Source of the DNA: a virus
Strand: one strand, 5' to 3'
IMG/VR virus record: IMGVR_UViG_3300025289_000025
Location: 26,297 to 90,296 of that record
Length of the DNA: 64,000 nt
The translations under genes were made by a program, and so were the position numbers. Under the pieces are notes generated by a model that did no database searches, was not told where the DNA came from, and saw only the letters and a list, made by a program, of their open reading frames with translations. This document shows positions 30,803-54,274 of this stretch, piece by piece. The number at the start of each line of letters is the position of its first letter. Position 1 is the first letter of the stretch.

Positions 30803-31107
30803 TTTTCCCTCCCCATAAAAGTTTTATTCCAGGCATCTTTTAACTTTTTAACATTTAATATCATAGGAGTAGCAAATGGTGTTTTTGTTCCTTCTAAATA
30901 TATAGGTGGTTGAGTTACCCCTGAATAAACTCGGATCCAAATTTTTCCGAAAAATAAAATAGATAATCTTTCTTTCCAATCTGCTTTCCAACAAGATATA
31001 CAAATTTGTCCGTCATTCCAAATGGGAAGTGGGGAACATTCTTTATCTGTCATTTCTGCTGGTTTTTGTAAATCTTTTGTTTTCTCAGAAAAATCTATAG
31101 GTTTCAT
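30799..31107 (-). CDS. Conserved phage hypothetical protein
   Basis: CSPLP...ISCW....ERL..LF.G.IW.....QPP motif. Confidence 0.6.
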   Translation of the reverse strand: MKPIDFSEKTKDLQKPAEMTDKECSPLPIWNDGQICISCWKADWKERLSILFFGKIWIRVYSGVTQPPIYLEGTKTPFATPMILNVKKLKDAWNKTFMGREK

Positions 31108-31910
31108 ATTTCCTCCATTTTGATATAAGAAAAAATTTCCCTTTTTTCCAAAGGGCAAAGTTTGTCCTTAAATGCCTCAAGATTTTTGTTATCTAGAGAT
31201 CCCCCATCATTAACCAATTTATTTTGGTTCAATATGATAGGATCTGTATAGAAAATATATCTCAAATATTCGTTTAAAAATTTGATATTTCGGGAGAAAT
31301 TGAACCGGAAATAAATTTGGGAGTACCCCAAATCCCATATATTTACCCCCAAAATATAATTATTTTTATCTACCAAAATTTTTCTATTATTACCATGAAA
31401 AAGGTAATTTAGCATAACTTCATCATCATGTATTTCTTGATCTTCCCCCTTGGTACCAACCCATTCCAGAAATAACTTTTTCAAATCCTCCTCATGATCA
31501 GAGGTTGCTTCAATATATCGTAGGGGGGCATTCCCATATCGGCCAGGGAATTTGCGAATATTTTTCCTAAAGATAGACCAACGACCCCCTTCCATTTTCA
31601 AAAAGTTTTTGGGATCATAGATATACTCAAAGGATAAAAATTCCTTCTTATAATCTGAGGACATTTCCCAATTATGAAAACAAGCCCAAATTTTGTTCAT
31701 GGGAATAATCCAATCTGAAGGAGGGCTTTTAACTAACTCCCCCGTTAGTGAATTTATTGGCGGCCCTATGAACCACTCGTGTTGTTTCCAATATACATAA
31801 TCTCCACAAGTTTGCTCTTCAATTCCAGATCGTTCAAAATATTCTTGACTGCATGGAAAAGTTGGAGTAATTTTATATTTCTCAAGCAATTTTAAGTAAT
31901 TACTTTTCAC
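31104..31910 (-). CDS. DUF2156 / LPG-synthase C-terminal-like GNAT protein (aminoacyl-tRNA-dependent transferase fold)
   Basis: EYIYD...L.MEGG.W..FRKNIRKF and C-terminal NDGGSLD...L..FK..L.P. Confidence 0.65.
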   Translation of the reverse strand: MKSNYLKLLEKYKITPTFPCSQEYFERSGIEEQTCGDYVYWKQHEWFIGPPINSLTGELVKSPPSDWIIPMNKIWACFHNWEMSSDYKKEFLSFEYIYDPKNFLKMEGGRWSIFRKNIRKFPGRYGNAPLRYIEATSDHEEDLKKLFLEWVGTKGEDQEIHDDEVMLNYLFHGNNRKILVDKNNYILGVNIWDLGYSQIYFRFNFSRNIKFLNEYLRYIFYTDPIILNQNKLVNDGGSLDNKNLEAFKDKLCPLEKREIFSYIKMEEI

Positions 31911-32531
31911 CGACTTTTCCTTTCAACAGCCTCAACGATATTCTCCACCGCTTCTTTTTGCCTATCCGTTACATGACTATTTTCTTCTACAGTATTTGCA
32001 ATCCCCGACAGCGTTTCTTCGGCCCAATCGTAATCTGGGTCTGATAAATAATCATTTATTTCTTCTATGAAATTTTCCCAACTACATTCTTGACACATTT
32101 ATGGTTATCCTCCTCTGCTCGTATAATTCCTATATCAACCCCTTCTTCAAGGATGAATATTTTTACTTTTCCTTTCATTCCTATAGGCAAATTATCTTCT
32201 GCTAGTTTTCTAATTTTTTCAGAATTTTCTGGTTTAATTTTGTAAGGAATCTTGATAATCATTAGATCGTTTTCTCTAACTTCTAGCGTTTGAACACTTT
32301 TAACAAACTCAATTTCGTTCATATTTTTTCCTCTACAGTTTTAAACGAGGCGGACCATCCACATCCAGACCAATGTTTGCAGGGACCATTTACTTTGCAA
32401 TAGGGGCATGGGCCATCTAACTTTCCCCATAGTCGATTTATCTCTTTAAGTATTGACTTCAATTCCTCTGGTTCGCATATCCCACATAGGGCAAAGGGAG
32501 GTACTTCGTGGGTACAATTAGAAAGTCTCAT
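31907..32531 (-). other. Three small hypothetical ORFs (31907-32098, 32065-32322, 32319-32531)
   Basis: Overlapping start/stop codons. Confidence 0.5.
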
Positions 32532-32961
32532 TTTTTCCCACCGTCTTCAGCGCGGCGCGGCAGATGGCGAGAGGGGCGGACGGTTCATCCCATCCCTGCT
32601 TACCATCAACGACAGTACATGACTTTTTGTCGATCCCGGTTCCCCTCTCTTCGCCTATCGCGTCTCTCATAACACAAATCCACGACGCTCCGTCATACCA
32701 TTCATTACCAATAACGCTTACTTTCCATTGGTTTTGTCTGAAATGCTCCATGACCTGCCACGCAGCGGAAATGGAGGTGGAATACATCGGAGGCCCAGCT
32801 TTCTTTGGGAAACACTTGCCCATTTCATGCTCACACTTCATGTCATTCATCATCTCGCCTATATGAAAGCGACTCCATCCGTCGCATGGCACAGACCCCA
32901 TGATCTTCTCCGCCACCAGCGCGTCCATCTCGCGTCCTGTGAGCATATCGTCGGGATTCAT
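32518..32961 (-). CDS. Phage ABA-sandwich domain protein
   Basis: GREMDALVAEKIMG, P.YSTSISAAWQV, APLAICRAAL; GC-rich segment. Confidence 0.8.
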   Translation of the reverse strand: MNPDDMLTGREMDALVAEKIMGSVPCDGWSRFHIGEMMNDMKCEHEMGKCFPKKAGPPMYSTSISAAWQVMEHFRQNQWKVSVIGNEWYDGASWICVMRDAIGEERGTGIDKKSCTVVDGKQGWDEPSAPLAICRAALKTVGKNETF

Positions 32962-33072: not shown

Positions 33073-33903
33073 TTAGATGATTTTCCTCCTTTTGAGGATT
33101 GGCTCAGCAACCGTTCGACTAACTTTTTGGATATACTCCCCGTTTTCCGACTTTTTCCGCCCATGCATAACCTCCCCTAAATCAGCTATTGTCCCGCAGT
33201 CGTCATAAATGCACCCCGCAATAACCCCTGATATATTATTATGCAATCCCTCAATTATAAAGTATTGCAGTTCTTCTGGAAAATAAATGTCTACCTTCTC
33301 ATTGAAATTAAATAGTGCCAAGAAATCACCAGTCCTCATTCCCATGGGGGAAAGAGAATCTGGAAGAACATCTTCTGGTTCTGTTAGGCCGAGGCCCTCC
33401 ATTTCCATTTTTCTTTCGAGTTGGATTAGAGATCCGACATAGATATCTCGTTGGAGTATTTTTAGTTCCCCCCCTTTAGTTACAAATTCAATATGCGATA
33501 AATTCTCGTCCAAGAGATCCAACGAAGATTTGCTAAAGGAAATTTTCCATTTCATTTTATCAGGACTATAAAATTTATAAAACAATTCTTCAACTTCTTG
33601 AAAAGTTTGATTGGGGATTCGGCATCTCTTGCTACGTATGAATTCCTCCCCTTTTTGAAGGAAAGTTATATTACTTCCGTCCGCAGTAAAATTTGGGGAA
33701 TCATAATCGCTCAAGAAAAATCTAATGGGGTCTTTGAATTCATTAACCGATGTTTCAAACCGAAGTAGTATAGTCTTATCGGAGTTCATAATATAAATGA
33801 TATTTTCCCAACAGAATACAGCGTTTTTTTGAGTACCCCCCTGTTCCAAAGCAACTCCGTAAGTGAATACCCTTTCAACCTCTAATTCATTTCGAAGTCC
33901 CAA
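33073..33903 (-). CDS. Hypothetical protein, possible second (PCNA/gp45-like) clamp-fold protein
   Basis: About 250-aa alternating beta/alpha pattern; IYIMNSDKTILLRFE resembles a clamp strand. Weak support. Confidence 0.35.
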   Translation of the reverse strand: MGLRNELEVERVFTYGVALEQGGTQKNAVFCWENIIYIMNSDKTILLRFETSVNEFKDPIRFFLSDYDSPNFTADGSNITFLQKGEEFIRSKRCRIPNQTFQEVEELFYKFYSPDKMKWKISFSKSSLDLLDENLSHIEFVTKGGELKILQRDIYVGSLIQLERKMEMEGLGLTEPEDVLPDSLSPMGMRTGDFLALFNFNEKVDIYFPEELQYFIIEGLHNNISGVIAGCIYDDCGTIADLGEVMHGRKKSENGEYIQKVSRTVAEPILKRRKII

Positions 33904-34405: not shown

Positions 34406-34410
34406 TATTT

Positions 34411-35627: not shown

Positions 35628-36007
35628 ATCCTCGCCTCTGTAAATACTTTATTCCATAATATCGTTATAGGTATTTTCAATTTCCGTACTCCATATTGTT
35701 CTGGAAATCGGATAGCAAATTCCAACTCCCCCGATTCTTTGACTAATACAAATAAAATCATATCGGCCTCTGTTCCCTTATCAAAGTGGAATCTCCCTCT
35801 TCTTCTCTTCCATTTTCCCTTAACACTTTCTGAATGTATCCATTCTTGGCACGATTTTATTTCTATCTTTGCATCTCCCACCGTAACGTCGTATCCAGCT
35901 TTATAATCTGGTTTAATCGGAGGATCTTTGAAAAAGTCCCCCAAATATTTGAGTACTCTTTCGTCAGATTCGCTCCAGTGTCTTGAAAAGAATCCTTTAT
36001 TTTTCAC
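35624..36007 (-). CDS. PD-(D/E)XK-like nuclease
   Basis: YDVTV...IEIKSC motif. Confidence 0.5.
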   Translation of the reverse strand: MKNKGFFSRHWSESDERVLKYLGDFFKDPPIKPDYKAGYDVTVGDAKIEIKSCQEWIHSESVKGKWKRRRGRFHFDKGTEADMILFVLVKESGELEFAIRFPEQYGVRKLKIPITILWNKVFTEARI

Positions 36008-37704
36008 CGGACCAAATTTTCTAACATTTCTAAGCGGAAGTCAGAACTTTCAATATATCTCCAAACTATATTTCCTTCTCGATCTCTTCCATAAGGTTCA
36101 ATTCCCTGGGCCCAATCCACCTGATATGCTTGATGTCCCCCAAGATTCCACGAATTCTTTACTTCTTGCATTAAGGTTTCTGATAACCACCCCCCACGTT
36201 CCTCTACGAAAGCGTTATATTTCCCCCACGTTACTGGGTGGGGTCCGTTATCCCGAACAAACCTAGCAGCAATCATGTTGTTCCCGTAGGAGAACCCTCC
36301 ACCCAGGGGTAAGTAAACATCTGATACGGAGCAGCAGATTTCATCATTATTGATCGGGGAATTCCCGAAATCGAAGGTGGAAGTTGAAAATCCCTCGGAT
36401 TTCATCATTTTCATAAATTCTCCTAAAATCAAAGAACCCAACCACTGACTATCTGACATTAGCAAAAACATTCTACGAAAATCTATTCCTTCCATTTCCA
36501 TTTGGCGTTCAACTCCAGGGGCAGAAGCGGAGTAGCTATATGTATCAAAAGTGATATGTTTAATCCCTGCTTCCCTGACTCCCTGTATCCATTTTTGAAC
36601 ATAATAAGGATCATCGTTCACAAAGACCATGAATGGCTCGATCCTTGCGACAACCCTAACCCCTGCATCCGTAAGGGCTTTTACAGCAAGCATGCGTTTC
36701 TCAAAAGACGGGGCGCCAGGTTCCAACTTTTTATTTAGAATACCATCTGAAGATATCGCCGTCATATGAACAGCAGCACCACCTTTATTATCTGCTAGTG
36801 CCCTAACGTAATCTTCTCTTCCGATTAACGCAGACTTAGTGTTCACCATTATGGGATATGCAATATCAGATAAATATTGCATAAAATTCAAACTGATTCC
36901 TTTTTGAGCTTCGATAGGAAGAAAATCTTCAAATCGAATTCCTAGACGGATGGGAATTTGTAGACTGATTGCTTTATTTAATTCTGGGCCATCTATTTTC
37001 TTTCCCCTATATGGCATTAATTTATCCATCTCTGCTCGAAAGTATTCTGGACGGCAGTGGCGTATTCCAATTTCCTTGGGGTTATCAAAGAATGAAGTAT
37101 AAAGAGAACTGCGAAAAGAGTCCGCAAAACAATTATGTACAAGAATTCCCTCTGCAAAATAATTATTATTAGGTTGACACTCAAAATTATAGACTATTTT
37201 TTTACCACTAGTTTTTGCTCTAGATATAGATTCAATTCTACTCCATTCCCATTTAGAAACACTATTAGATTTAGAATAATATGGGGATATCATCATATCA
37301 TGCATATTTAATTTATTTGCTTCTATCCAACCCCTAGTAGTAAATATTGTATGCTCTGGGGTTAACTTTAGAATATTATTTTTAGTTTTGATAACTATTA
37401 AGTCTTCGGTAGCTCTGCTCATTATTTTTTGAACGATTGATTTTTCTTCTATCAATAAACTATTATAAGTATTTAGAGAAACAACCTCATCTCCCTCTTT
37501 AATTTTTTCTATATTCTTTTTTATACCATTCCACATTTGTATTTTGGTTTTAGGAGGTAAACAATATTTGCATGCGTAGCTGCAATTATGAACTAATTGG
37601 GAAGATGCAAAGAAATTGCTATTTCTATCTACAGTTAAATCAAATACAGCAGTAGGTTTACTAATTTTCCGTAGACTTTTTATTTTCTTAAATCTAGTTT
37701 GCAT
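36004..37704 (-). CDS. Radical SAM paralog B, C-terminal precursor: split-intein C half (40 aa) + CSYACKY + mini-intein (144 aa) + radical SAM body
   Basis: VFDLTV..NSNFFA...VHN|CSYACKY|CLPP...VHN|CFADSF; the body has NTKS, LEPGAPS..KR and ARIEPF, as in SPL-like radical SAM enzymes. Confidence 0.9.
   Translation of the reverse strand: MQTRFKKIKSLRKISKPTAVFDLTVDRNSNFFASSQLVHNCSYACKYCLPPKTKIQMWNGIKKNIEKIKEGDEVVSLNTYNSLLIEEKSIVQKIMSRATEDLIVIKTKNNILKLTPEHTIFTTRGWIEANKLNMHDMMISPYYSKSNSVSKWEWSRIESISRAKTSGKKIVYNFECQPNNNYFAEGILVHNCFADSFRSSLYTSFFDNPKEIGIRHCRPEYFRAEMDKLMPYRGKKIDGPELNKAISLQIPIRLGIRFEDFLPIEAQKGISLNFMQYLSDIAYPIMVNTKSALIGREDYVRALADNKGGAAVHMTAISSDGILNKKLEPGAPSFEKRMLAVKALTDAGVRVVARIEPFMVFVNDDPYYVQKWIQGVREAGIKHITFDTYSYSASAPGVERQMEMEGIDFRRMFLLMSDSQWLGSLILGEFMKMMKSEGFSTSTFDFGNSPINNDEICCSVSDVYLPLGGGFSYGNNMIAARFVRDNGPHPVTWGKYNAFVEERGGWLSETLMQEVKNSWNLGGHQAYQVDWAQGIEPYGRDREGNIVWRYIESSDFRLEMLENLVR
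37132..37563 (-). mobile_element. Mini-intein (144 aa) at the third Cys of CxxxCxxC
   Basis: Starts CLPPKT, block B LTPEH, block F VYNFE..NNNYFAEG, ends HN followed by +1 Cys. Confidence 0.92.
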
Positions 37705-38839
37705 TTATTAAAATCTCCCTGATTTTTCCAATGTAAATAGTTTTAGGGGAAGAAACTGTTTTAAGTTCGTCAATGGCTTTTAAAATAGTTTTATCCACAT
37801 CTTTAGCAAAAATAGAATTAGTGTCTATTCTTATGACTGATATTTGAAATAATTTATCTACATAATCATCTCTTTTACGATCTCTTTTTATCCCCTCTTC
37901 TGAATAATGGTCACTATAACCATCGTATTCTATAATTATTTTAAAATCCGGCAAATAAGCATCGGCAAGAATATAAGAAAAATCTAATTGTCCCAATTGA
38001 AAGAAGCACTCCGGTTCGTATTTAAATCCCATAGAATCTAAATATTCATAAAGTTTCCTTTGCCCTTCGGATATCCCCCCGTTTTTCTTTATGGTTTCTT
38101 TTGCTTTAGCCCAAACTAGTCTAGCAGTTTCTGGATCCTTCATGGGATTGTTATTAGATAACATTCTATTCTTAGCATCCAAACGTTCTCTTCCTTTATT
38201 AGGATGTACATAACCATCTAAAGCACAAGTTCTTTTATAAGACTCGATCATTCTATTTCTTATCTCCAGAACCTTCATGGGGTTATCTTCCTTCATTCTA
38301 GCAGAAGCTATATCCTTGGCTTCCTCAGACATTTTGCTAGGTTTTCCTAATAAATCAGGCCTTAATCTACCTTTATTTGGGTGAACAAAATTAGGATCAT
38401 TTAATGTTTTCATTAGAGATTCATGACTTTTATTTTTAATCTCTTCATCTTTCATAGGATTATTTTCTTTCATTCTAACAGAGGCATTTTCTTTCATTTT
38501 CTTTGTCCAAATTGCCCCCGGTTTTCCCGTCCGGGATTTTGATATCCTTTCCCTAGTCTGTTCTGAACAAATTCTTCTTCTATTAGCATCTCCTATTTTT
38601 TTCTTAACTTCTTCTCTGCAGGCAGGATTAGTATCTCCGAACATACTATCATATTTTCCTTGCTTCCATTGTTCTTTCTTTATTTCAGATTGAATTTGTC
38701 GGGATTCTTCTGATATTCCATTTCTGATAGCTTCTTTTTCTTTTTCTGTCCTTGGAATACCTTTATTCCAAGCTGCTTGCACCCCTGTTTTCCCTTTATT
38801 CCAAGGAATGCAGCCTTTGGCTGGTCCTCGTTTACCCAT
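37694..38839 (-). CDS. Free-standing homing endonuclease: NUMOD3/NPMK repeats + DUF559/Vsr-like nuclease
   Basis: PWNKG, NPMKD repeats, ISEGQ.KLY, ADAY.P....EYDG..DH...D..RD; overlaps both intein halves. Confidence 0.85.
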   Translation of the reverse strand: MGKRGPAKGCIPWNKGKTGVQAAWNKGIPRTEKEKEAIRNGISEESRQIQSEIKKEQWKQGKYDSMFGDTNPACREEVKKKIGDANRRRICSEQTRERISKSRTGKPGAIWTKKMKENASVRMKENNPMKDEEIKNKSHESLMKTLNDPNFVHPNKGRLRPDLLGKPSKMSEEAKDIASARMKEDNPMKVLEIRNRMIESYKRTCALDGYVHPNKGRERLDAKNRMLSNNNPMKDPETARLVWAKAKETIKKNGGISEGQRKLYEYLDSMGFKYEPECFFQLGQLDFSYILADAYLPDFKIIIEYDGYSDHYSEEGIKRDRKRDDYVDKLFQISVIRIDTNSIFAKDVDKTILKAIDELKTVSSPKTIYIGKIREILINAN

Positions 38840-39390
38840 TAATATATCTCCAAAAGTAAGTCGTCTTCATTAAGTTGCCCGGCTTCTACCCACCCTCGTT
38901 TGGTAAAAATTTGGTGATCTTCCGTAACAACTAGAAGTCCTTTTTCAGTTTCTATTTCTACTAAATTAGTTTTTTCTGAAGAAGATGATAACAAAACTTG
39001 GGTAAACTCTACTTTTTTGGTCGATTCGTTATATGAGGCTATCTCATCCCCCACCTTTATATCTTCAATTTTTTTGAATCCTGTTTTAGTAGTAATCAAT
39101 TGACCTTTTGCTATGCAGTATAGTGCATCATAAACATCTGCATTAAGGGGCATGGGGCAATGATTTTTTCTTAGGCTCACTTCAAGGAAAGAAGTAATTT
39201 CATCTTTATTGAGCAATCTTTGTTTTATTTCAAATTTTTCACTATCGAATGAAAATTCCTTGTATCCAATTTTTCTACCCTTTTCTTTAACTAGTCCTTT
39301 ATGTTTTTCTAGAAAGTCCAGCATTCCTCTTCTTGGGATGATGTTCTTCACCAGTTCACGCAACTCCCAATATCCGTTAAATAATTTCAT
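38839..39390 (-). CDS. Radical SAM paralog B, N-terminal precursor: 91-aa extein + split-intein N half (92 aa, starting at 39117)
   Basis: HCPMPLNADVYDALY|CIAKGQLI.T..G.KKIEDIKVGD, block B VTEDH, GWVEAG.L; ends with no C-terminal HN. Confidence 0.9.
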   Translation of the reverse strand: MKLFNGYWELRELVKNIIPRRGMLDFLEKHKGLVKEKGRKIGYKEFSFDSEKFEIKQRLLNKDEITSFLEVSLRKNHCPMPLNADVYDALYCIAKGQLITTKTGFKKIEDIKVGDEIASYNESTKKVEFTQVLLSSSSEKTNLVEIETEKGLLVVTEDHQIFTKRGWVEAGQLNEDDLLLEIY

Positions 39391-39685
39391 TTATTTTAAT
39401 ATCTCCTATTTCTTCTTCCAATTCATTTTCATCAAATTCGTCAATATCAATTTCTATTTTATACCAATATCTGAAAAATGCTTTTTTCAATTTTCTTTTA
39501 AATGCTAACGCCTCTAACTTAGTATCGAATAACCATTCCATATCCCTATACATAATTCCTTCGTCATCATATGTCCCCGCTGCCCACCAATGTTTACTAT
39601 CTTCGGCCATAGCCAAATCGCTTACAAATTTCCATTCTTCCATATTAGAAACTTCAATATTTAAAGTCAATTCGTATTTGGTCAA
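39377..39685 (-). CDS. Hypothetical acidic protein
   Basis: Overlaps both neighbours. Confidence 0.55.
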   Translation of the reverse strand: MTKYELTLNIEVSNMEEWKFVSDLAMAEDSKHWWAAGTYDDEGIMYRDMEWLFDTKLEALAFKRKLKKAFFRYWYKIEIDIDEFDENELEEEIGDIKINEII

Positions 39686-40437
39686 TGATTCGCTCTTTTC
39701 TTAGCTGCTATTCTCATCTTTATTTTAGTTTCTTCAGATTTTGGTTTTCCTTTACCGGATAAACTCATTTTTTTCTTAGTCTCCTCAGAAAGAGGTTTTC
39801 CTTTTAAAGCTAAACTTATTTTTTCTTTATGTTCTTTAGAAAGATGTTTTCCTTTATTAGCTAAACTTAATTTTCTTTTTAACTCCTCCGAAAGAATATG
39901 TTTTCCTTTATTGGCCAAACCTATTTTTGCTTTAGTTTCTTCAGAAGGATGTTTTCCTATATGTATTAAACTCATTCTTTTTCTAGTTTCTTCTGTATGG
40001 TGTTTCCCAAATAAAGGGTGATTTTCTCCTTTATTAGCTAAACTTATTTTCCCCCTCGTTTCTTCTGAATTTATTTTTCCATTATGAGCTAAACTTATTT
40101 TTTTCTTAGTTTTTTCTGTATGCTTATACCCCAAAGTAGAACTAGCATATCTACAAATATCATATCCATATATTCGATCATATGATTTATAAAAGTCTTT
40201 CCAATATTGTTCCCTAGTAGTTAATTGATCTAAATATTTAATTATTTCTATTACCATAAATACAAAAGATTCTTCCCCATATTTATAATAAGCTGCTTGT
40301 ATATGTTTAGTATGTTTTCCCTTACGAAGTTCCGTCAAATGTTGATTCCATCTGTTATACACGTCTTTAGAAGATCCTATATATTTCTTTCCGTTGATTC
40401 TATTAAGAATCATATATACCCCAGATATTCTTTTCAT
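39682..40437 (-). CDS. GIY-YIG homing endonuclease with NUMOD3 repeats
   Basis: SGVY.I.N..NGKKYIGSS, REQYW, and repeated SEETK.K.S...KG. Confidence 0.92.
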   Translation of the reverse strand: MKRISGVYMILNRINGKKYIGSSKDVYNRWNQHLTELRKGKHTKHIQAAYYKYGEESFVFMVIEIIKYLDQLTTREQYWKDFYKSYDRIYGYDICRYASSTLGYKHTEKTKKKISLAHNGKINSEETRGKISLANKGENHPLFGKHHTEETRKRMSLIHIGKHPSEETKAKIGLANKGKHILSEELKRKLSLANKGKHLSKEHKEKISLALKGKPLSEETKKKMSLSGKGKPKSEETKIKMRIAAKKRANH

Positions 40438-45537: not shown

Positions 45538-45934
45538 AAATTAATACTTTATCCCCCTTTATTAATTCCCCTGCTTCCACCCACCCCCGATCAGTAAATA
45601 CTTTATGATTTTTAGTTATTTTCAATAATTTATTTCCTATTTTTATTTTGATAATTTCTGAACTCCTATTCATAGTATGTTTAATTAATTTAGATTCTAC
45701 TTCAAATGTTTTTTCATTATAAGTTAATACTTTATCCCCTACTTTCAACTCTTCTATAGGTTTAGAAGTACCATTTGATAAGTTAATTGGTGTATCTCCT
45801 GATAGACACATCCAATTGCAACCTGCACTGCAACCAGCAAAGCAATCCCCCCCGAATGCTTGAGGACAACAAAGACTATCTGAACGAAATCCTACGATGG
45901 AACCAAATTTTAATTCTCTAATATCTTTTTTCAA
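45527..45934 (-). CDS. Radical SAM paralog A, N-terminal precursor: 42-aa extein + split-intein N half (93 aa, starting at 45808)
   Basis: CCPQAFGGDCFAGCSAGCNWM|CLSGDT.I....G..KPIEELKVGD, block B ITKNH, GWVEAGEL; TTG start. Confidence 0.88.
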   Translation of the reverse strand: MKKDIRELKFGSIVGFRSDSLCCPQAFGGDCFAGCSAGCNWMCLSGDTPINLSNGTSKPIEELKVGDKVLTYNEKTFEVESKLIKHTMNRSSEIIKIKIGNKLLKITKNHKVFTDRGWVEAGELIKGDKVLIYEK

Positions 45935-46367: not shown

Positions 46368-47210
46368 TCAATACCCCACTGGGAGTTCAAACGGAGAACA
46401 ATATTCTACGGGGACGATAACTTCACTAAAATATTTATTCAGAGATTTCCTAATATATTCCAAATAGGGAACATCAGATGGATAAATATTCATGATTAAA
46501 GAAGCTGCCACGTCCATTGCCCACATATCTTTTGAGGAAATTAAAACATTTGCTGGTTTGGGTATCCCACATTGTTCTGAATATTCTGATCCCACTATAC
46601 CATCCATTACGCAAGCAGCTATTCTATCTTTGATAAGAAAATATAAATCATGGAGTCTCTTATGAAGAATATCATAACTTCCGCGAGGATGCATGCTTCC
46701 CTTTTGGGCCATCATGCCCATCGTATTTTTTATAGCCCCCGTTACAATTGCAATATTATGAACCTTTAGTTTGGGAACGTTGATAACAAAATCGCATTCT
46801 AGCATCGTGTTAGAAAATTTAGCCCCAAATAATGATAGATGCCCATCTCTTCTATGCAAGGTAAATTCGTGAAATCTTGGGCCTTCTTGAAGTCCTATTA
46901 ACTGAACTCCGTATCGTTTTGGAAGTTGGTCATATCCAGATAATTTAATTGTGTACTCGAATTGGTCTTTAAATCCGCAATCTCCCACTACTATATCATT
47001 AGCTCCATTATTCATTAAATATTCAATTACTATAGAAATAACTTCAACTCTAGTAGTAGATGCTATATCCCATTTTGTAGGAGGGCAAACTAGATTGGGC
47101 TTTACGAAAATCTTTTTACCGTGGCAATCAGGAAAGTATTGCCAAAACTCTCGGGGGATATTTTCTAACTTCAAATTTGCGTAATCTGTTTCCCTATGAA
47201 ATTGAATCAA
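46368..47210 (-). CDS. DUF362 domain protein
   Basis: IFVKPNLV, VVGD, INVPKLKVH, TGAIKN.MG, MDGIVG, AMDV. Confidence 0.85.
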   Translation of the reverse strand: MIQFHRETDYANLKLENIPREFWQYFPDCHGKKIFVKPNLVCPPTKWDIASTTRVEVISIVIEYLMNNGANDIVVGDCGFKDQFEYTIKLSGYDQLPKRYGVQLIGLQEGPRFHEFTLHRRDGHLSLFGAKFSNTMLECDFVINVPKLKVHNIAIVTGAIKNTMGMMAQKGSMHPRGSYDILHKRLHDLYFLIKDRIAACVMDGIVGSEYSEQCGIPKPANVLISSKDMWAMDVAASLIMNIYPSDVPYLEYIRKSLNKYFSEVIVPVEYCSPFELPVGY

Positions 47211-47524: not shown

Positions 47525-48253
47525 TCAATTAACCGTGAACGACCCGTTGGCCACAGTGACTACCCCCATCTTTTCTAAAACATTCAAGGAGGACTTCACC
47601 ACCGTAGCAGATTCCTTTGCGTTATTCTTTCCGCCCTGATCAATATAATGCTGATTAGCCGACGCTACCAACTCCTCGATAGTCCCCGTTTTTAACGCAG
47701 TAAGAGTGCCCCCCAAAGATGACCAACGATTGAACGCTTTGGGAGTCGGACCCTTCCGAGCAACCTTCTCCTTGGGGGGCTTGGGGGCCTTTGCGGAAGC
47801 CGGGGCCTTTGCCACAGCAGGAGCAGCTGCTACTGGGGTAGGTGCTGTCGTAGCCGGTGCCGGGGGAGCCGGGGCTGGGGTACTCGCTACAGGGGCAGGA
47901 GCAGCAGGAGCCGGGGCAGGAGCCGCAGGAGGACGTCCAACACGACGGGCTGCAATTGGAGGAGGCGGGGGGGGCGGCTCAGGAGCAGGAGGCGGCTCCA
48001 GTTCTGTCTCTGGGGGGGCTTCCTCTCCCTGATCCAGACCCAAAGTAGTCAGAATCTCATTGTACAGGTTGATAATATTTGCATTGAAGGTTCCAGGGGC
48101 ATCCACCTCGGCCTTTTCCACTGCGTCAAGAAACGCAGGGATCAAAAGTTCCTTGGAAACCTTGTCTGCATTCTTGACCCCAACTTCTGTAGCACATGCG
48201 ATTAACTTACTGTGAACAATTTTCTTCACGAGCTTCGGGTCAAAATTCGGCAT
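47525..48253 (-). CDS. Pro/Ala-rich protein with basic C-terminal winged-helix-like domain (possible nucleoid/DNA-binding protein)
   Basis: Long PAPA linker, Lys-rich; codon usage differs from neighbours; ggag RBS before ATG 48253. Confidence 0.5.
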   Translation of the reverse strand: MPNFDPKLVKKIVHSKLIACATEVGVKNADKVSKELLIPAFLDAVEKAEVDAPGTFNANIINLYNEILTTLGLDQGEEAPPETELEPPPAPEPPPPPPPIAARRVGRPPAAPAPAPAAPAPVASTPAPAPPAPATTAPTPVAAAPAVAKAPASAKAPKPPKEKVARKGPTPKAFNRWSSLGGTLTALKTGTIEELVASANQHYIDQGGKNNAKESATVVKSSLNVLEKMGVVTVANGSFTVN

Positions 48254-48361
48254 GACTTTGCCCTCCAATAGAGTTTTTGTACTACTGCATACTACAGCCA
48301 ACAAATAGGGATAACTTAAAGTTGCTGCTAGTAAAATATTCACCCCTCCTTTCTGACATAG

Positions 48362-48999
48362 TCACCCCTTTGCTACAAGTAATTGTTTTTGTTTTCTTTT
48401 ATCCAACACCATCTTTTTATAATTGGGATCTGCCCATCTTTCTCTTATCTTATCTACACTCATTTTTTTATACTCAGGATCTAACCATTTTTCTCTCATT
48501 TTTCTTTTAGTTTCTTCAGGCAGAGGTTTTCCTTTCCTTGCTAAACTATTATTCCTATTATTTTCTTCGGTGCGTCGTTTTCCTAAGTTGGATAATCTTA
48601 TTCTTTCTTTAGTTTCTTCACTATGGTGTTTACCCCACCTATTATTATTTTCTCCTCTTCTGGTTAAACTCAACCTTTGTTTTGATTCATCAAACCAATA
48701 CGAAGATGCAACTATTCTGCAAAGATTATATCCATTTTCTGGAAGATATGATTTATAGTAATCTATCCAAATTTGTTCTCTTTTTTCAATTTGTATTTGT
48801 CTTTAACAATTTCTATTATCATAAAAACAAATGCTTCTTCCCCAAATTCATTATAGGCTTCTTGAAGGCGAAGACAAGGGTTGATCCCCTTACGAAGTAA
48901 TCGCAAATGGGTGTTCCATCTACCAAACAAATCTTTAGTAGACCCCACATATATTTTTCTATTTTCCCTGTTTGTGATTCTATACACCCCAGATGCCAT
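48362..48999 (-). pseudogene. Frameshifted GIY-YIG/NUMOD3 endonuclease
   Basis: Reads TTG AAA AAA GAG at ~48781, where the intact paralog at ~59170 has TTG AAA GAA AGA. A -1 shift restores REQIWIDYYKSY and joins ORF 48362-48673. Confidence 0.85.
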
Positions 49000-49076
49000 G
49001 CATAACCACCACCTTCCCCGGCCTTTTTCCCCTGTAGTTATTACTACAGGATTCCCCACGAAATCATATTAAATTA

Positions 49077-49907
49077 CTATTGATCGTTTTCTTCTTCGTT
49101 CAGAAGACAGAATATTGAAAATCCCCCTTCCTTATCATTTATTATTTTATTCTTATCCGACTCTTTCTGATTTAGCCACCATTTCATCATTTCTTCTCCA
49201 GTTTCCCATTTAGAAAAACCAGAGGTTACTTTCAATCCGTCTATATTTCTTTTATCTATACATCTTTGAAAAGCCCTAATATACGCTTCTCTATATTTTG
49301 GCCATCTTTCCCCATCTCTTATCATTTGCTTAGTAGTCTGTAATGGGCACATAATGCAACCTAATCTTTTAAATCCTTCATCATATAATTTACAATACGA
49401 TAAATTGTTGAATTTTATATAACTCCAAACGTTGCCAATAGACCAATCAATAATAGGATGTAGATATCTTTTACTATGATCTCGTCTACAAATTTCTACC
49501 ATTCCTCTTTTGGATCTTTTATTTGATTCTTGTGCCCTAATTCCAGTCATCACTAATCTGTCGGACCCCCCCCCTCTCTCCTTCAGATATCCACAACAAT
49601 ATCGTACTACTCTGGTAGGAGGCATTCTTTTCTTTACTATTAAGCCCCACATACTTATTTCGGGGTACGATATATGAACTTCAGGGTGTTGATCACGAAT
49701 AAACTTAACCAATTCAGGGGGATCCACCGTAGTTAAATTATAATGGGCATCAAATTTAACTTTTGCTCTTTTAACTAAATCCAATATCACCACAGAATCT
49801 TTTCCACCAGAAAATGCGATGTAGTACCCATCAGGAGGTTCAAAATTCTGAATTCTTGCTATCGAGATATCAGATAATTTACCCCAAATATTTTCTGGTT
49901 CGTTCAT
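49077..49907 (-). CDS. PAPS reductase family protein
   Basis: AFSGGKDS, RYCC..LKE, GIRAQES..R, PIIDWS, LYD.GFKRLGCIMCP. Confidence 0.9.
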   Translation of the reverse strand: MNEPENIWGKLSDISIARIQNFEPPDGYYIAFSGGKDSVVILDLVKRAKVKFDAHYNLTTVDPPELVKFIRDQHPEVHISYPEISMWGLIVKKRMPPTRVVRYCCGYLKERGGGSDRLVMTGIRAQESNKRSKRGMVEICRRDHSKRYLHPIIDWSIGNVWSYIKFNNLSYCKLYDEGFKRLGCIMCPLQTTKQMIRDGERWPKYREAYIRAFQRCIDKRNIDGLKVTSGFSKWETGEEMMKWWLNQKESDKNKIINDKEGGFSIFCLLNEEENDQ

Positions 49908-49913
49908 TATAAT

Positions 49914-51311
49914 TTATCCTCTATCTTTTTGATATGGATGTATTCCCTTACTAGAAAAACTTTCTGGTTCAATTCTTCCTTTTTTATGTAGGTATTGGGG
50001 CAGAACAATACTAAACGAATGATCAGAACAAACACGGCCTATTTGCATTTTATCCATTTTCCAATGATCTATTAAGGCGTTTATGAAAATTTCCACCCAT
50101 TCACGAGGCCCCGTTAACAAATTTAATCTAGGATTCAATTGTCTTGGAATATCAAATAAACGATTGGCTCCTCTAATAAATTGATTTTCTTCTAGTCGAG
50201 TAAGTTTCTTAGGAATTCCCAATAAAACTTTATCAATATAGATTTCTTTTAACCAAATTGTGGTTTGGGGGTTCTTTTCTTTTTCACTCTTTACAACGGA
50301 GGTGACTGGTTTGGGTTCATTTTCCAAACAATACAAAAATTGACTCTTAATCAATGAAGCAAAACGATTATAAAAAAAAGTAGCTAATCCCAAGTTTTTA
50401 AAAAATGATTTATTTATGGGTTGATAATCCAAATTAGTAGCCATTAATTTATATTTATCTATCCCTGAAATTATTTCTTCTTTTGAATACTTCTTATTAT
50501 CAGTTAAACCCTCTCCTATAAAAAATTCCCCGTCCAATACTTTTTCTATAGTAGAAACTATATTTAAAAATGTTTTTGTGGGAAAACCATATCCTTGTCC
50601 ATTGATTGGAGGAATGTGATGATGGGGTAATCCGGGGGAACTATTCCAATAATTAATAATATCTAACGTTTCTTTTCTATATTGTTGACGGGGGGGTTTT
50701 TCAAAAACAATCGGAGAATTTATTTTTCTTTTGATTAAAGAGAGGGTTGAATTTAGACTTAAACCATTCATACCGGTTTCACCCGCTTCTGGTGAAACCG
50801 AGGAGTCTTTATGAGAGAAAGAACGAAGTTCTTTCGAACTTAAAGACTCTGGTTCTTTAGATTTTAGATTTAGATCTTTTAGTTCTTTACTAGGACCGGA
50901 AAACCTTTCCGCTCCAGACCGGAAATCATTTTCCGGTCCATAGGTTAATTTTTTACACTCGGTATAAGATATATTCATTTTGATTTGATCCTCGAAGAAA
51001 GGGTGCCAAGGAAATACATAATTATTATGAAAATGTTTTACTCTCTCTATCCCCGTAGGAGCTATTAATATAATGAAACCCCCACTCTCTAGTTCTTTAA
51101 GAATATTTCTAATTTGTCGTTCTGATATTCCTAATTCTCTTGATAAAGTATTTTGTGACGGGTAACAAAATCCTTTTTCCCCCGCATATCTAGCTAGTTG
51201 GCCGTAGCAAAGTTTAGCGGAGGAAGATAAATCAGGATTTCTGGAAATGGCATAGGGGATTTTAACTCCATCAAAAGTTATATTAGGATTGAAAAGTTCC
51301 CCAATTTTCAT
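49914..51311 (-). CDS. Replication initiator-like protein (N-terminal HTH_36)
   Basis: LSSSAKLCYG.L......CYPSQ.TL..ELGISERQI; internal inverted repeats; adjacent to the DnaB gene cluster. Confidence 0.7.
   Translation of the reverse strand: MKIGELFNPNITFDGVKIPYAISRNPDLSSSAKLCYGQLARYAGEKGFCYPSQNTLSRELGISERQIRNILKELESGGFIILIAPTGIERVKHFHNNYVFPWHPFFEDQIKMNISYTECKKLTYGPENDFRSGAERFSGPSKELKDLNLKSKEPESLSSKELRSFSHKDSSVSPEAGETGMNGLSLNSTLSLIKRKINSPIVFEKPPRQQYRKETLDIINYWNSSPGLPHHHIPPINGQGYGFPTKTFLNIVSTIEKVLDGEFFIGEGLTDNKKYSKEEIISGIDKYKLMATNLDYQPINKSFFKNLGLATFFYNRFASLIKSQFLYCLENEPKPVTSVVKSEKEKNPQTTIWLKEIYIDKVLLGIPKKLTRLEENQFIRGANRLFDIPRQLNPRLNLLTGPREWVEIFINALIDHWKMDKMQIGRVCSDHSFSIVLPQYLHKKGRIEPESFSSKGIHPYQKDRG
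50772..50940. repeat. Cluster of inverted repeats, candidate replication origin
   Basis: cggtttcacc..ggtgaaaccg; ggaccggaaaa..gaccggaaa..ttttccggtcc; tandem tttaga runs. Confidence 0.5.
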
Positions 51312-51386: not shown

Positions 51387-51755
51387 CTACGGTTCTTTTG
51401 TTTTTAATAAGAATTTTTCTAAATAATCAAAATTTATTGAATATTTATTTTTTGGGGGAAACCCTATTCTTTTTACAGATAAAATTCCCACGTTTATTAG
51501 TTTTCTGGTTGCTATTTTTTGTTTATATGGGCTTAACCCAGTTCTTTTTTTTATAAATTTTCTGCCTACGAAAAAAGATTCCCCCAGTAAAATGCGTTGA
51601 TCGTTTTCTAAAAGAAATTGATAACTTATTAGCTCTGAAAGAAAAAAGGAGGTGTCCCAACCTAAATTTTTTCCTACGGAAATATTTAAACCTATGTTAT
51701 TTTTATTATTTTTATCTACTACGTAATTTTGGATAATACTTTTAAAGTTACTCAT
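51387..51755 (-). CDS. Winged-helix protein (replication-protein N-terminal-like)
   Basis: TGLS...Q..A..KL...GIL...R.G.P.K..Y.IN. Confidence 0.6.
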   Translation of the reverse strand: MSNFKSIIQNYVVDKNNKNNIGLNISVGKNLGWDTSFFLSELISYQFLLENDQRILLGESFFVGRKFIKKRTGLSPYKQKIATRKLINVGILSVKRIGFPPKNKYSINFDYLEKFLLKTKEP

Positions 51756-53319
51756 CTTTCTTTTTCTCCCCACTTTTATTTCCATCATAAAATATAATTT
51801 CTGTATCCAAAACGGGCATTCCTGTTTCCAGTTGTTGTAAAGCCATTACTTGTCGTCTTTTATTGAAATGTTTCCATCTATGTTCGATAACCCCCATTCT
51901 CCATACTCCCCTCTCTTTTTCGTCGGGTGTTTGATCTAATGTCATCATAATATCAACGTGTGCAAGGATATAAGCATTTACTCCGATATCCCCCTCATCT
52001 TGCATATCTTTTTTAAGCGCCGATCTGCCTACCCCCAATGATTGCGCCCCGGTTACTACTAAGGCTGATCTAGTTTGGGCTAATCTTTTATGGGCTTTAA
52101 ATACGTCATCCACTTCGTGTCTAGGATCATTATATTTTTGTTCTGGTCGTATAATGGAGGCATAGTCTGTAATAATGACGTCAGGAATAAAACCCTCTAC
52201 CATTTCTAATTCATCCAGGCTTTCTTCTACGTCAGCCATGGTAGCTGAATAAGCGGGGAAACTAATGATTCTTAATAAGTTTTTTCCAAACATCTTCTGA
52301 AACTTTTTAATCTCTTTACGGGTATTAGGCAACGTTAATTTAGGCCGATCTGCCGTGAAGAACCACGTTGTAGCCAAGAAATTGCCCCCTCCGGGTATCG
52401 ACCTACAGGCCGTACAGGGTTTATATTGTCCGGGGGCTTTAGGGTCGAATTTAGGGGGCCGATTTTCTCTATTCATCCTTTGGACGTTATTGCAAGAGTT
52501 ATCTTGATTATTTAAACAATCGAAGCAAGGGAAAATATATTCTTGATTTTCTTCTCCTTCCCCCATAACACCAAGTTGTTTATATATTCTGACGGCTTGG
52601 TGTTTATCTTTCATTTCGAAGGACATGTAAACTACTCTTTTTCTAGATAACATAGCATCGAATGCAAAATCTTGTAACGAAAAACTTTTTCCACGTTTCA
52701 TTGGCCCCATTACAGCTACCAACCATCCTCTATATAAATCACCTAATAAATCTCCTAACTTGCCTTTCATTCTAAATAACGGAATGTCTTTTTCTTCGAA
52801 AACTGAATTTAAAAAAGTAGAGTCATCTAATGGTTTGGACCAATTATACGAAATAGCATCAACTATCTTTTTATGGTTTTCGTAGAATTTTTCTGCTTCT
52901 TCGTTCTTTCCAATATCTAACAGAGAATTAATCCCCTCAGCAACCCTCCGTAAATGACGGGTTTTTAAATATTCCCTCCCTTTATCAATAATAAAATCTT
53001 CATTGATTCCGTCAGGGCCTCCTTCTGATAAATATTCTTCTGATAGTTTAGTCAGGAATAATCCAACCTCTTCATCTAATCCCTGTTTGAGTTTCCCTTT
53101 TTCTGTTTCATATAAATCTTTGATATGCTTCTTTGGAGCTACTTTATATTTATCATAATATTCAATAACCCATCTAATTATGTTTTTGCTGACTTCCAAC
53201 TCGAAAATATTTGGGTCGGAAAATGGTAGAAGGTGTGCAGCAATCTTATCGGATATGATTATACCCGTAAGTATCCTTTTTTCGACCCCCCTGTCGGAAT
53301 GGTGAATCCGTCTGAGCAT
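51748..53319 (-). CDS. dnaB: DnaB-like replicative helicase with Cys-rich insertion
   Basis: GPMKRGKS, SFEM, IITDYA, TGAQ; insert CFDC..C...CTAC. Confidence 0.8.
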   Translation of the reverse strand: MLRRIHHSDRGVEKRILTGIIISDKIAAHLLPFSDPNIFELEVSKNIIRWVIEYYDKYKVAPKKHIKDLYETEKGKLKQGLDEEVGLFLTKLSEEYLSEGGPDGINEDFIIDKGREYLKTRHLRRVAEGINSLLDIGKNEEAEKFYENHKKIVDAISYNWSKPLDDSTFLNSVFEEKDIPLFRMKGKLGDLLGDLYRGWLVAVMGPMKRGKSFSLQDFAFDAMLSRKRVVYMSFEMKDKHQAVRIYKQLGVMGEGEENQEYIFPCFDCLNNQDNSCNNVQRMNRENRPPKFDPKAPGQYKPCTACRSIPGGGNFLATTWFFTADRPKLTLPNTRKEIKKFQKMFGKNLLRIISFPAYSATMADVEESLDELEMVEGFIPDVIITDYASIIRPEQKYNDPRHEVDDVFKAHKRLAQTRSALVVTGAQSLGVGRSALKKDMQDEGDIGVNAYILAHVDIMMTLDQTPDEKERGVWRMGVIEHRWKHFNKRRQVMALQQLETGMPVLDTEIIFYDGNKSGEKKKDE

Positions 53320-53325
53320 GTAAAA

Positions 53326-53580
53326 CTACTTTTTTTGGACTACATTTATATTGATGGAAAACTCTTCGTGATTTGGAATGCGAAGGAATCCTCCCGTGCT
53401 GGCGACCGTGATACTTTTTCCAGATTTGGATTCCCCAAATTCTTTATTTAAGTCTATTTCTAGGACCAAAATCCCTTCGTCTTGAACAGCCATTATTATA
53501 TTTTTTACTTTATTTTTCCCCTCCAACTCTGCAATTCTAGCTTCTAAATCTTGAATAGTTTTATCAGTTTTTTTGTCCAT
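53326..53580 (-). CDS. Conserved hypothetical protein
   Basis: IDL..EFG.SKSGKS..VASTGG motif. Confidence 0.65.
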   Translation of the reverse strand: MDKKTDKTIQDLEARIAELEGKNKVKNIIMAVQDEGILVLEIDLNKEFGESKSGKSITVASTGGFLRIPNHEEFSININVVQKK

Positions 53581-54274
53581 TTCTATTCCCCCCCGTTTTA
53601 TATGGTTGAATTACACTAGGATCTTTAGTAATATTCCAATGATTTCCCTCATTCCACAGACTTAACTGCGGGAAAAATACTATATTCTCTATTCTCTTCC
53701 AAGTAAACCATAAAATAACTTGTAATTGATTAGGCAATAATTTATGTTTTTTAGCTACTTTGAAAAATGCTTCGGCCATTTCATTGTATCTTTTCAGGGA
53801 AGACACTAATTTCAATTCCGCTACTTCTTTCATTCGATATCGTCTACCAGAATAAATAGAACACATGTGTCCGTCAAGTGTTATATATTTAGGATTTTTG
53901 GGGTATAGAATATTCAAGTAAAAATTTCTAGTTTTCACTCCGTCCGTTTCTGCTAAGAAATCTTTATTTCCCACTAAAAAATCATACGCTCTATTTCTGC
54001 ATTGATTGTAGGTAGATACAGTGATTTCTTTTGGGGATATTTTTTTATTGGCCCCAATCATAATACTGACTAGAGATCGTAAATTTCCTTGGTAATCATT
54101 ATTTGGGGATAGAGCAACGAAAGTGGCGACTGTTTGACAGAATCCAAATTCATAGTAATCGGCTATGCTTTTTAGCATTTTGTTATATCTTGCGTAGGCA
54201 ACTTTTCCTTCTTCAATATCGATGGAATCTGCTAGAGCAAATACTTTTTCTATGTTGGTTATTTTGGTTTTCAT
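53564..54274 (-). CDS. HhH DNA-glycosylase-fold-like phage protein
   Basis: ALSPNN, KT.NFY.NI, ITLDGHM, P.QLQ..LW; C-terminal PQLSLW. Confidence 0.6.
   Translation of the reverse strand: MKTKITNIEKVFALADSIDIEEGKVAYARYNKMLKSIADYYEFGFCQTVATFVALSPNNDYQGNLRSLVSIMIGANKKISPKEITVSTYNQCRNRAYDFLVGNKDFLAETDGVKTRNFYLNILYPKNPKYITLDGHMCSIYSGRRYRMKEVAELKLVSSLKRYNEMAEAFFKVAKKHKLLPNQLQVILWFTWKRIENIVFFPQLSLWNEGNHWNITKDPSVIQPYKTGGNRNGQKN

Follow-up and report, generated by a model that had tools for sequence, protein, structure and literature searches.

The DNA described here, hereafter the window, comprises the last 64 kb (positions 26,297 to 90,296) of the 90,296-bp viral record IMGVR_UViG_3300025289_000025 of IMG/VR, the completeness of which is estimated at 97%. 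Between the genes of a DnaB-like helicase and the beta sliding clamp, its replication operon carries a cassette with a core of four genes, two for paralogous radical S-adenosylmethionine (SAM) proteins, RS2 and RS1, one for a protein with a predicted PCNA fold, p276, and one for a putative double-GNAT transferase, GNAT268. These four genes are inherited as a block, and among related replication modules the cassette is an accessory element, present as a whole or absent as a whole. On balance, we regard it as a probable post-replicative DNA base modification system which would protect the phage DNA. A more specific picture, in which uncultured groundwater and soil phages would make a new DNA base by an oxygen-independent route, with a clamp carrying a heteromeric radical SAM pair and a transferase along newly made DNA, is put forward tentatively, as a possibility rather than an expectation. 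An initial annotation of the window had proposed a hypermodification pathway in this replication module; the proposal finds support in the 7-deazaguanine and methylase genes which share the same slot in relatives and in homology to gp53 of phage M6, and its gene set was partly wrong, with p276 and a Pro/Ala-rich protein missing from the list and several listed genes being passengers.

A cassette inherited as a block

The open reading frames (ORFs) of the window were annotated with Pfam, NCBIfam and PHROG scans, and the coordinates given below for its genes all refer to the minus strand. Initial scans with single proteins returned near-identical contigs only, in which RS2 and a UDP-glucuronate decarboxylase (UXS) are free of inteins, the 3'-phosphoadenosine 5'-phosphosulfate (PAPS) reductase gene is absent at the place it has in the window, and an extra radical SAM gene is present. 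In the close relative L005 (IMGVR_UViG_3300025012_000952), an extra radical SAM protein of 288 aa with the motif CPNKCWFC, absent from the window, is encoded at 2299-3165 between the primase and the DUF7178 protein. Diverged loci were obtained from an alignment of RS2 homologs (11 loci, 61-70% identity) and from an alignment of the transferase (55 IMG/VR loci, 30-65% identity), with hidden Markov models (HMMs) built from the RS2-anchored set; presence in the latter set was counted only in loci whose flank, 10 kb in length, reaches far enough. Among the 11 RS2-anchored loci, RS1 and p276 were each found in 10 and GNAT268 in 9, each miss lying at a contig end; DUF362 was found in all 11, and a 133-aa ORF of the window in none. 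The transferase-anchored loci gave p276 in 49/50, RS1 in 43/44 and RS2 in 35/40, and the misses are confined to close relatives of the window, where inserted genes displace the partner beyond the 10-kb flank. Their order is constant, namely DnaB, Pro/Ala-rich protein, RS2, RS1, p276, GNAT268, clamp, PolA and clamp loader, with the clamp gene after the transferase gene in 48 of 49 loci and PolA in 45 of 45. Gene co-occurrence, which the initial annotation had named as a check, was thus found for RS2, RS1 and GNAT268 and, in a subclade, for DUF362; UXS, PAPS reductase and the DUF7178 protein, which it had counted in, do not co-occur with them.

The Pro/Ala-rich two-domain protein (47525-48343), recognized with an HMM built from relatives and without a Pfam match, is probably the fifth member of the cassette. 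In 24 of 38 cassette loci its gene lies immediately ahead of the radical SAM genes, and it was seen in 0/12 cassette-less loci that show DnaB, the sensitivity of an HMM being low for a sequence as rich in Pro and Ala as this one. The Pfam model of single-stranded DNA-binding protein was not found in the genome, and the Pro/Ala-rich protein may therefore be a replication protein. DUF362 (46368-47210; PF04015, E 3.2e-36), correctly named in the initial annotation, joins the cassette only in the subclade with the RS2 subtype of the window and was found in 4 of 38 transferase-anchored loci. An excerpt of PMC11770544 assigns DUF362 and the N-terminal domains of LarA to a common Pfam clan, CL0471. 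A comparison of DUF362 with PDB sequences gave a chance match only (E 0.2), and the literature search returned nothing linking DUF362, radical SAM and phage, and nothing on the function of DUF362.

The cassette is a compact set of four to five genes and is widespread, with at least 32 distinct cassette-bearing replication modules and with 414 clusters at 50% identity, stand-alone proteins, in a profile search with GNAT268; the 150 best clusters listed range from 228 to 321 aa. No isolate among 50,697 phage records carries it, as neither tblastn of RS2 nor tblastn of GNAT268 gave a match there; megablast of the region against the same records gave none either. The family is virus-only: scans of 185,579 species genomes returned 0 relatives of RS2 and 2 of GNAT268, both on short contigs of metagenome-assembled genomes with conflicting phylum labels. 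No description of the cassette was found in the literature, articles' supplementary files (e.g. those of PMC8989533 and PMC13219725) being outside the scope of that search.

The clamp-like protein and the putative transferase

The AlphaFold 2 (AF2) model of p276 (276 aa; 33073-33903; pLDDT 78, pTM 0.77) has a two-domain sliding clamp fold. A Foldseek search of the PDB returned yeast PCNA as top match (E 6.3e-10) and clamps or PCNA in every row listed down to rank 50, with TM-scores against clamps of only 0.43-0.55; in the viral structure library BFVD, the named top matches were nearly all clamps or PCNA. ESM Atlas had provided weak clamp leads only (0.81-0.87), which were later confirmed by the fold search. 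Unlike cellular PCNA, p276 carries a disordered, K/R-rich C-terminal tail, exemplified by ...RRRK, in the majority of 41 distinct relatives, and this basic tail suggests, as a lead only, direct DNA binding. The PCNA fold of the model implies a DNA substrate.

GNAT268 (268 aa; 31104-31910) had initially been described as a DUF2156-like GNAT. The window protein has no Pfam, NCBIfam or PHROG match, and none to PF09924 (LPG_synthase_C) even at E<=10; the designation DUF2156-type appears to hold at the level of the family, as PF09924 was matched by 32 of 74 sampled members (best E 1.8e-7) and was the sole family matched. The ESM Atlas model of GNAT268 (pTM 0.84) aligns over residues 1-268 at TM 0.81-0.83 with bacterial proteins, all of which carry PF09924, and the predicted structure is a double GNAT with the fold of aminoacyl-tRNA-dependent transferases. 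Among proteins known to use aminoacyl-tRNA are DUF2156/MprF-C and FemX. The best match of the GNAT268 profile to PDB sequences was 2hqy (E 0.76), which we take to be a DUF2156 structure. A literature search on DUF2156 and phage gave nothing relevant by title and abstract.

The radical SAM pair RS1 and RS2

RS1 and RS2 are paralogs (24% identity, E 3e-30), and both genes are broken, in each case by a split intein with an endonuclease ORF that separates the halves, RS1 having a mini-intein in addition. RS2 (43391-45934; Hint/intein Pfam matches and translations) is made up of three ORFs, the N-extein with IntN (45527-45934), the endonuclease (44557-45537) and IntC with the C-extein (43391-44572, C-extein 43391-44455). 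The three ORFs of RS1 (36004-39390; Pfam and translations) are the N-extein with IntN (38839-39390), the endonuclease (37694-38839) and an ORF for IntC, a 7-residue extein, the mini-intein and the C-extein (36004-37704, C-extein 36004-37131), such that the RS1 motif CSYACKYC is assembled only by two splicing events, the mini-intein lying seven residues past the split intein. The two SPL-like radical SAM paralogs of the initial annotation are therefore retained as paralogs, with both genes in pieces and with weak SplB-type matches. Of the 46 distinct reading frames listed for the RS1 HMM, 35 contain the motif CxxxCxxC, and the 11 frames without it are cut by the locus end or represent C-terminal pieces of intein-split genes. 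In the RS2 family the motif is invariant across 16 aligned members (C35, C39 and C42), and in the wider family the gene at the RS2 position mostly encodes a diverged radical SAM protein that retains it.

Profile comparison with hhalign related both proteins to gp53 of phage M6, which was picked out in the M6 record via its published Cys motif: RS2 gave a probability of 85% (E 6e-6, 118 columns), RS1 one of 81% (E 1.2e-5, 215 columns, with the Cys motif aligned), and an unrelated phage radical SAM protein, used as control, 0.3%. As judged from these alignments, RS1 and RS2 are remote homologs of a DNA-hypermodifying enzyme; M6 gp53 is described, in an excerpt of PMC8989533, as an SPL-like radical SAM protein isomerizing N-alpha-glycinyl-thymine on DNA.

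L005 has an intein-free ortholog of RS2 (395 aa, 89% identical to RS2 of the window). Intein-free RS2 served for an AF2 model (pLDDT 85.8). Its VIA structure matches lie in the radical SAM range (Z 13-16.6), with spore photoproduct lyase (SPL) on top (Z 16.6 over 257 residues), followed by the pyruvate formate-lyase activating enzyme (PFL-AE, 15.9) and SuiB (15.6), differences in Z of less than 1 counting as ties. RS1 and RS2 stay far below the cut-offs of the NCBIfam models of the SplB-type PA0069/Rv2578c proteins, with 49.7 bits versus 360 for NF033668 and 43 versus 430 for NF038135; NCBIfam also holds a model of the intein-bearing Rv2578c family, NF038136. The RS2 profile gave 0 matches to PDB sequences at E<=1, and a literature search on Rv2578c and radical SAM returned nothing relevant by title and abstract. 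At the C-terminus of RS2, GL[LIF][FWY] ends 9 of 16 aligned sequences after a low-confidence linker and resembles a clamp-binding peptide; since it is not general in the wider family, it is no more than a lead.

The replication-module slot and its alternative occupants

An alignment of the clamp loader yielded 287 relatives; the best 80 were kept, and 42 loci among them offer an upstream flank of 6 kb or more. At 40-50% identity, the clamp loaders of these 42 are as close to that of the window as those of the cassette holders, the exception being a close relative, L081 (79%). Three of the 42 loci contain the full cassette and one is cut within it; the other 38 lack it, and a visible partial cassette occurs in none. 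The DnaB-to-clamp slot is occupied by 7-deazaguanine genes in 28 of the 42 (in 11 if a minimum of two visible Que genes is required); FolE, QueC, QueD (PTPS) and QueE were confirmed by Pfam in the slots of L108 and L090, and a DpdA-like phrog_887 protein ('queuine tRNA-ribosyltransferase') directly precedes the clamp in the 7-deazaguanine loci. C5 or N6/N4 DNA methylases occupy the slot in 4 of the 42, including L088, which carries a DpdA-like gene too and figures in both counts; the remaining loci show a short gap or other genes. The modification genes in these 28 and 4 related loci mark the DnaB-to-clamp slot as a modification slot. The cassette is interchangeable with the 7-deazaguanine set, and the two largely exclude each other. 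QueC (PF06508) above cut-off and the DpdA-like gene were found in 0/5 cassette-bearing records, three of which reach a completeness of 97% or more, the DpdA-like search having used the L090 protein, without a positive control among the five.

In the tree of 66 labelled clamp-loader sequences, the 32 cassette holders do not form one clade, and forcing them into one costs 654 log-likelihood units (p 1.75e-27 in the approximately unbiased test). The tree requires 18 changes of state, versus 22.3 +/- 2.1 in 500 shuffles, 17 of which gave 18 or fewer. The scattering of the holders indicates repeated exchange, of the block or else of the clamp-loader gene, with the four genes staying together.

Other occupants of the slot include, in L097, a radical SAM-SPASM gene (3018-4076) followed by an ORF that matches the Asn-synthase-like protein of L106; in L157, a phrog_9298 radical SAM gene (3746-4915); and in L106 itself, a C5 methylase, the Asn-synthase-like protein and a methyltransferase (4231-5484). 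These sets may be further modification systems, and the slot is a place to look for more, such as the radical SAM sets of L097 and L157.

Proposed mechanism and alternative explanations

The case for base modification is built on the block inheritance of the cassette, its all-or-none occurrence and apparent mobility, its slot position, the mutual exclusion with 7-deazaguanine genes, the homology to gp53, the PCNA fold of p276, the precedent of Mom and the confinement of the family to viruses. In the mechanism envisaged, p276 would bind or encircle newly made DNA and tether the enzymes, GNAT268 would move an aminoacyl group from a charged tRNA onto a base, and RS1 and RS2, probably as a pair, would carry out an oxygen-independent C-H abstraction or rearrangement on the base or on the appended group. 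Radical C-H chemistry would so attach an amino acid from charged tRNA to a canonical base, and the cassette would play the role of the 7-deazaguanine (FolE/QueCDE/DpdA) module or of DNA methylases in the same replication-operon slot. This clamp-tethered, tRNA-dependent, radical SAM-based model is conceivable, with the odds somewhat against it. The stretch occurs in 20 sequencing runs, which belong to 16 studies and are metagenomes of groundwater, sediment and soil dated 2014-2016; all are flagged as possible sources, and no RNA run is listed among them. Such habitats fit oxygen-sensitive radical SAM chemistry and provide a weak argument against UV repair.

A number of observations weigh against this interpretation. 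The use of aminoacyl-tRNA by GNAT268 is read from the fold only, and the protein has no sequence relation to Mom of phage Mu (hhalign probability 0.1%). The top structural match of RS2, SPL, is a repair enzyme. After trans-splicing, RS2 of the window would read C-SAG-C-NWM-C (Cx3Cx3C), unlike the CxxxCxxC of all 16 aligned members, the extra residue directly preceding the intein insertion point, and this copy may have altered cluster binding or be impaired; with three proteins dependent on intein splicing, the cassette copy of the window as a whole may be partly impaired. Exclusion is not strict: in the L069 cassette locus a DpdA-like gene separates GNAT268 from the clamp, the L043 locus includes a QueD-like ORF, and in some relatives DNA methylases adjoin the cassette. 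The slot position is guilt by association, and the locus counts include near-identical loci without de-duplication. Finally, the 18 changes on the tree are only about two standard deviations below the shuffles and the tree is possibly poorly resolved, which leaves the number of independent transfers uncertain.

The closest rival takes the cassette for an accessory of the replisome or of nucleotide supply that leaves no lasting base modification, for instance a second clamp whose Fe-S/radical SAM partners process primers, nucleotides, protein or tRNA, or make a small-molecule effector. Such a role would suit the clamp fold of p276 and the constant position of the genes inside the replication operon, between helicase and clamp; moreover, aminoacyl-tRNA-dependent transferases and radical SAM enzymes also occur in nucleoside natural-product pathways, for which an excerpt of PMC13219725 names PacB. 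Yet equally related modules work without the cassette (38/42 loci) and carry DNA modification genes in the slot, and the homology of RS1 and RS2 is to the DNA-acting gp53, and we therefore consider an accessory of this kind rather unlikely. Still less probable is a DNA repair module, in which SPL-like radical SAM proteins, recruited by the PCNA-like protein, would reverse radical or photochemical thymine lesions alongside the UDG of the polymerase. It would leave unexplained why there are two paralogs and a protein with a tRNA-transferase fold, and why 7-deazaguanine or methylase genes replace the set in the slot; UV lesions are unlikely in groundwater, sediment and soil. The highest Z of RS2 does belong to SPL (16.6, 257 residues), but PFL-AE (15.9) and SuiB are tied with it, the PDB profile search at E<=1 brought up no SPL, and the NCBIfam score was 49.7 against a cut-off of 360. 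What else speaks for repair is the UDG domain fused to the polymerase, the JGI name 'DNA repair photolyase' given to relatives, and the fact that repair enzymes are recruited by PCNA-type clamps.

The pathway drawn up in the initial annotation was wider, with the GNAT, both radical SAM proteins, UXS, DUF362, the PAPS reductase and the DUF7178 protein all acting on one base in a 5-hmdU-like or Dnd-like manner. All these genes lie within 23 kb on one strand, and in the window and its close relatives UXS is physically located between RS2 and RS1. Against their joint action stand the locus counts, with UXS in 4/33, PAPS reductase in 0/33 and DUF7178 in 0/33 transferase-anchored loci and each of them in 0/11 RS2-anchored ones; counted over 12 loci, PAPS reductase was in 0/12 and DUF7178 in 1/12. 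The whole records of five cassette-bearing relatives contain a PAPS reductase gene in 1/5, elsewhere in the genome, and DUF7178 in 1/5, a close relative, and UXS co-varies with a glycosyltransferase gene. Neither ThyA nor ThyX was found in the record, no aGPT-Pplase was matched among the scanned ORFs, and the DndC model gave 16.8 bits versus 290. The full pathway, already contradicted by the co-occurrence counts, appears highly improbable. UXS, PAPS reductase and DUF7178 are passengers, separate from the cassette, and base modification by the compact set remains our preferred explanation.

Relation to known systems

Hypermodifications of phage DNA serve the evasion of restriction and CRISPR and are a source of enzymes for biotechnology. 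To our knowledge, the starting point of each characterized pathway is a nucleotide pool that is modified, a transglycosylase, a dioxygenase or a GNAT acting alone, and we know of no earlier case in which paired radical SAM proteins are combined with a clamp-fold protein and a protein of the tRNA-transferase fold. Should the model hold, the cassette would have no precedent as a clamp-tethered DNA hypermodification machine, and only Mom would precede it in using aminoacyl-tRNA for DNA modification. A thymidine hypermodification pathway based on 5-hydroxymethyl-2'-deoxyuridine (5-hmdU) has reportedly been worked out by Lee and co-workers in 2018 and 2021; the 5-hmdU is supplied by dUMP hydroxymethylase, a thymidylate synthase homolog. 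The initial annotation had seen no such homolog in the window, and the statement now extends to the whole 90-kb record, in which PF00303 and PF02511 (ThyA and ThyX) gave 0 matches, with positive controls present; in the five cassette-bearing relatives, ThyA was found in 0/5 and ThyX in 1/5, the latter in the record of L005. The absence of a thymidylate synthase homolog excludes the classical 5-hmdU route.

The corresponding M6 cluster consists, according to an excerpt of PMC8989533, of gp51 (aGPT-Pplase2), gp52 (a pyridoxal phosphate (PLP) decarboxylase), gp53 (the SPL-like radical SAM isomerase) and gp54 (a 5-hmdU DNA kinase). Like the cassette as interpreted here, it is phage-encoded and post-replicative and directs an SPL-like radical SAM protein to DNA, gp53 being the remote homolog of RS1 and RS2. 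The cassette differs in having two radical SAM paralogs, a PCNA-fold protein and a DUF2156-type transferase, with no thymidylate synthase homolog. No aGPT-Pplase was matched in a Pfam hmmscan of 30 ORFs at 24-59 kb, nor in rescans of the extein parts and intein endonuclease ORFs at E<=10, and the scanned ORFs contain no PLP enzyme or kinase family, a specific model of the 5-hmdU DNA kinase not having been searched. The analogy with 5-hmdU/aGPT-Pplase pathways drawn in the initial annotation hence breaks down at two points, the thymidylate synthase homolog and the family of the transferase.

The 7-deazaguanine module shares with the cassette the identical DnaB-to-clamp slot (28/42 loci) and the inclusion of a radical SAM protein, QueE. 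It has no protein families in common with the cassette, which lacks a transglycosylase; the 7-deazaguanine base is synthesized as a free precursor before being exchanged into DNA. The SplB and PA0069/Rv2578c (COG1533) proteins supply both the best structural match and the only NCBIfam matches of the RS pair, with scores far below the cut-offs and no PDB sequence match, and the paired viral context stands in contrast to that of a lone bacterial repair gene. Mom of phage Mu, according to an excerpt of PMC13219725, is a GNAT which moves glycine from Gly-tRNA to N6 of adenine in double-stranded DNA. Both Mom and GNAT268 are phage proteins of the GNAT superfamily with DNA as the likely target, and a charged tRNA is a plausible donor for GNAT268; Mom, however, acts as a single enzyme with a single GNAT domain, whereas the double-GNAT GNAT268 always occurs with two radical SAM proteins and a clamp-like protein. 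Mom may therefore serve as a precedent by analogy, not by shared membership. The phage T-dioxygenases, described in an excerpt of PMC13229309, oxidize thymine post-replicatively, and 5mYOX176 needs a ParB-like partner, ParB176, on double-stranded DNA. They are a loose precedent for base-directed C-H functionalization without a thymidylate synthase homolog and with a DNA-binding helper, and differ in their Fe(II)/2-oxoglutarate- and oxygen-dependent chemistry and their ParB partner from the cassette with its radical SAM proteins, suited to anoxic habitats, and its PCNA-fold partner. Tet_JBP was not found in the genome, in a search without positive control.

Passenger genes and the polymerase

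The identification of a UDP-glucuronate decarboxylase is confirmed. The UXS-type short-chain dehydrogenase/reductase of the window (41127-43394; GDP_Man_Dehyd, E 2.2e-46), which is not a member of the conserved cassette, carries a LAGLIDADG intein; its intein-free ortholog in L005 is 85% identical to the N-extein of the window and matches human UXS1 in the PDB (phmmer, E 1.4e-110, residues 2-309), the next family following at 7.7e-36. A gene of the UXS superfamily of such dehydrogenases/reductases and a GT4-like glycosyltransferase gene are both present in two of the five relatives' records and both absent from the other three, all five of which have the cassette. This co-variation makes it more likely that UXS serves glycosylation than the cassette, and its product most likely goes to the glycosyltransferases encoded in the head operon; lying between RS2 and RS1, the gene may nevertheless be linked to the cassette in this lineage. 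Upstream of the window, after the capsid gene (G000:C1 7836-15733), are encoded a 1058-aa B12-binding radical SAM fusion, three methyltransferase-fold proteins and a GT4 protein with a 'GT4-conflict' match, and a GT2-like gene follows farther on at 18527-19291; the UXS product is likely to be used by these genes.

The PAPS-reductase-family protein (49077-49907; PF01507, E 5e-27; phrog_424), again named correctly at the outset, is a lineage-specific passenger whose gene is missing from this position even in the nearest relatives. The Dnd-type parallel proposed for it is not upheld: the DndC model TIGR03183 gave 16.8 bits versus a cut-off of 290.4 and covers the PP-loop only (residues 28-48), DndA, DndD and DndE not having been searched. 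The only ORF that fits the label of an HhH glycosylase-fold protein is the DUF7178 protein (53564-54274; PF23802, E 1.6e-22), another passenger. Its comparison with PDB sequences gave only an unrelated enzyme at E 0.049, and with the two M6 ORFs upstream of gp52, among which gp51 is presumed to lie, an hhalign probability of 0.1%; nothing on DUF7178 was found in the literature.

The polymerase gene (25343-28867) encodes a UDG-exonuclease-PolA protein, with an intein inside the UDG domain (Intein_splicing, residues 138-434). Both the UDG domain, by Pfam, and motif A, DYGGHEVG, were as initially annotated. UDG domains were found in 7/7 relatives' polymerase ORFs examined, and relatives split the gene into separate UDG-exonuclease and polymerase ORFs. 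The suggested tie between the atypical motif A and modified DNA was rejected, as six polymerase ORFs of cassette-bearing relatives have DYSGLEVR, DYSQLEVR, DFSGLEVR or DYKAIEVC; DYGGHEVG is lineage-specific.

Gene order and mobile elements of the window

The minus strand carries nearly all long ORFs from 8.6 kb to the end of the window, and no tRNA genes were found within it. The clamp, primase, DUF362, PAPS reductase, UXS and radical SAM genes listed in the initial annotation are all present, the polymerase lying outside the region 31104-54274 to which they had been assigned. In the direction of transcription, the operon begins with the primase (54271-55281; Pfam DNAG_N and Toprim_2), the DUF7178 protein and the DnaB-like helicase (51748-53319; a weak AAA_25 match, and HMM synteny in relatives), which forms the upstream border of the variable slot. 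Then come an HTH_36 protein (49914-51311), the PAPS reductase, a split GIY-YIG endonuclease (48362-49059), the Pro/Ala-rich protein, DUF362, the 133-aa ORF, RS2, UXS, a further GIY-YIG endonuclease (39682-40437), RS1 and several small ORFs, the HTH_36 and GIY-YIG assignments resting on the library scans. These are followed by p276, a Phage_ABA_S protein, GNAT268, the beta sliding clamp (29738-30802; DNA_pol3_beta_2, E 4.7e-5), which is the downstream border of the slot, the polymerase and the clamp loader (24356-25285; library scans). The GIY-YIG gene at 48362-49059 consists of a 98-aa GIY-YIG ORF and a 103-aa NUMOD-like ORF and is probably a decayed gene. Altogether, the mobile load of the region amounts to at least five endonuclease genes and five inteins or intein halves.

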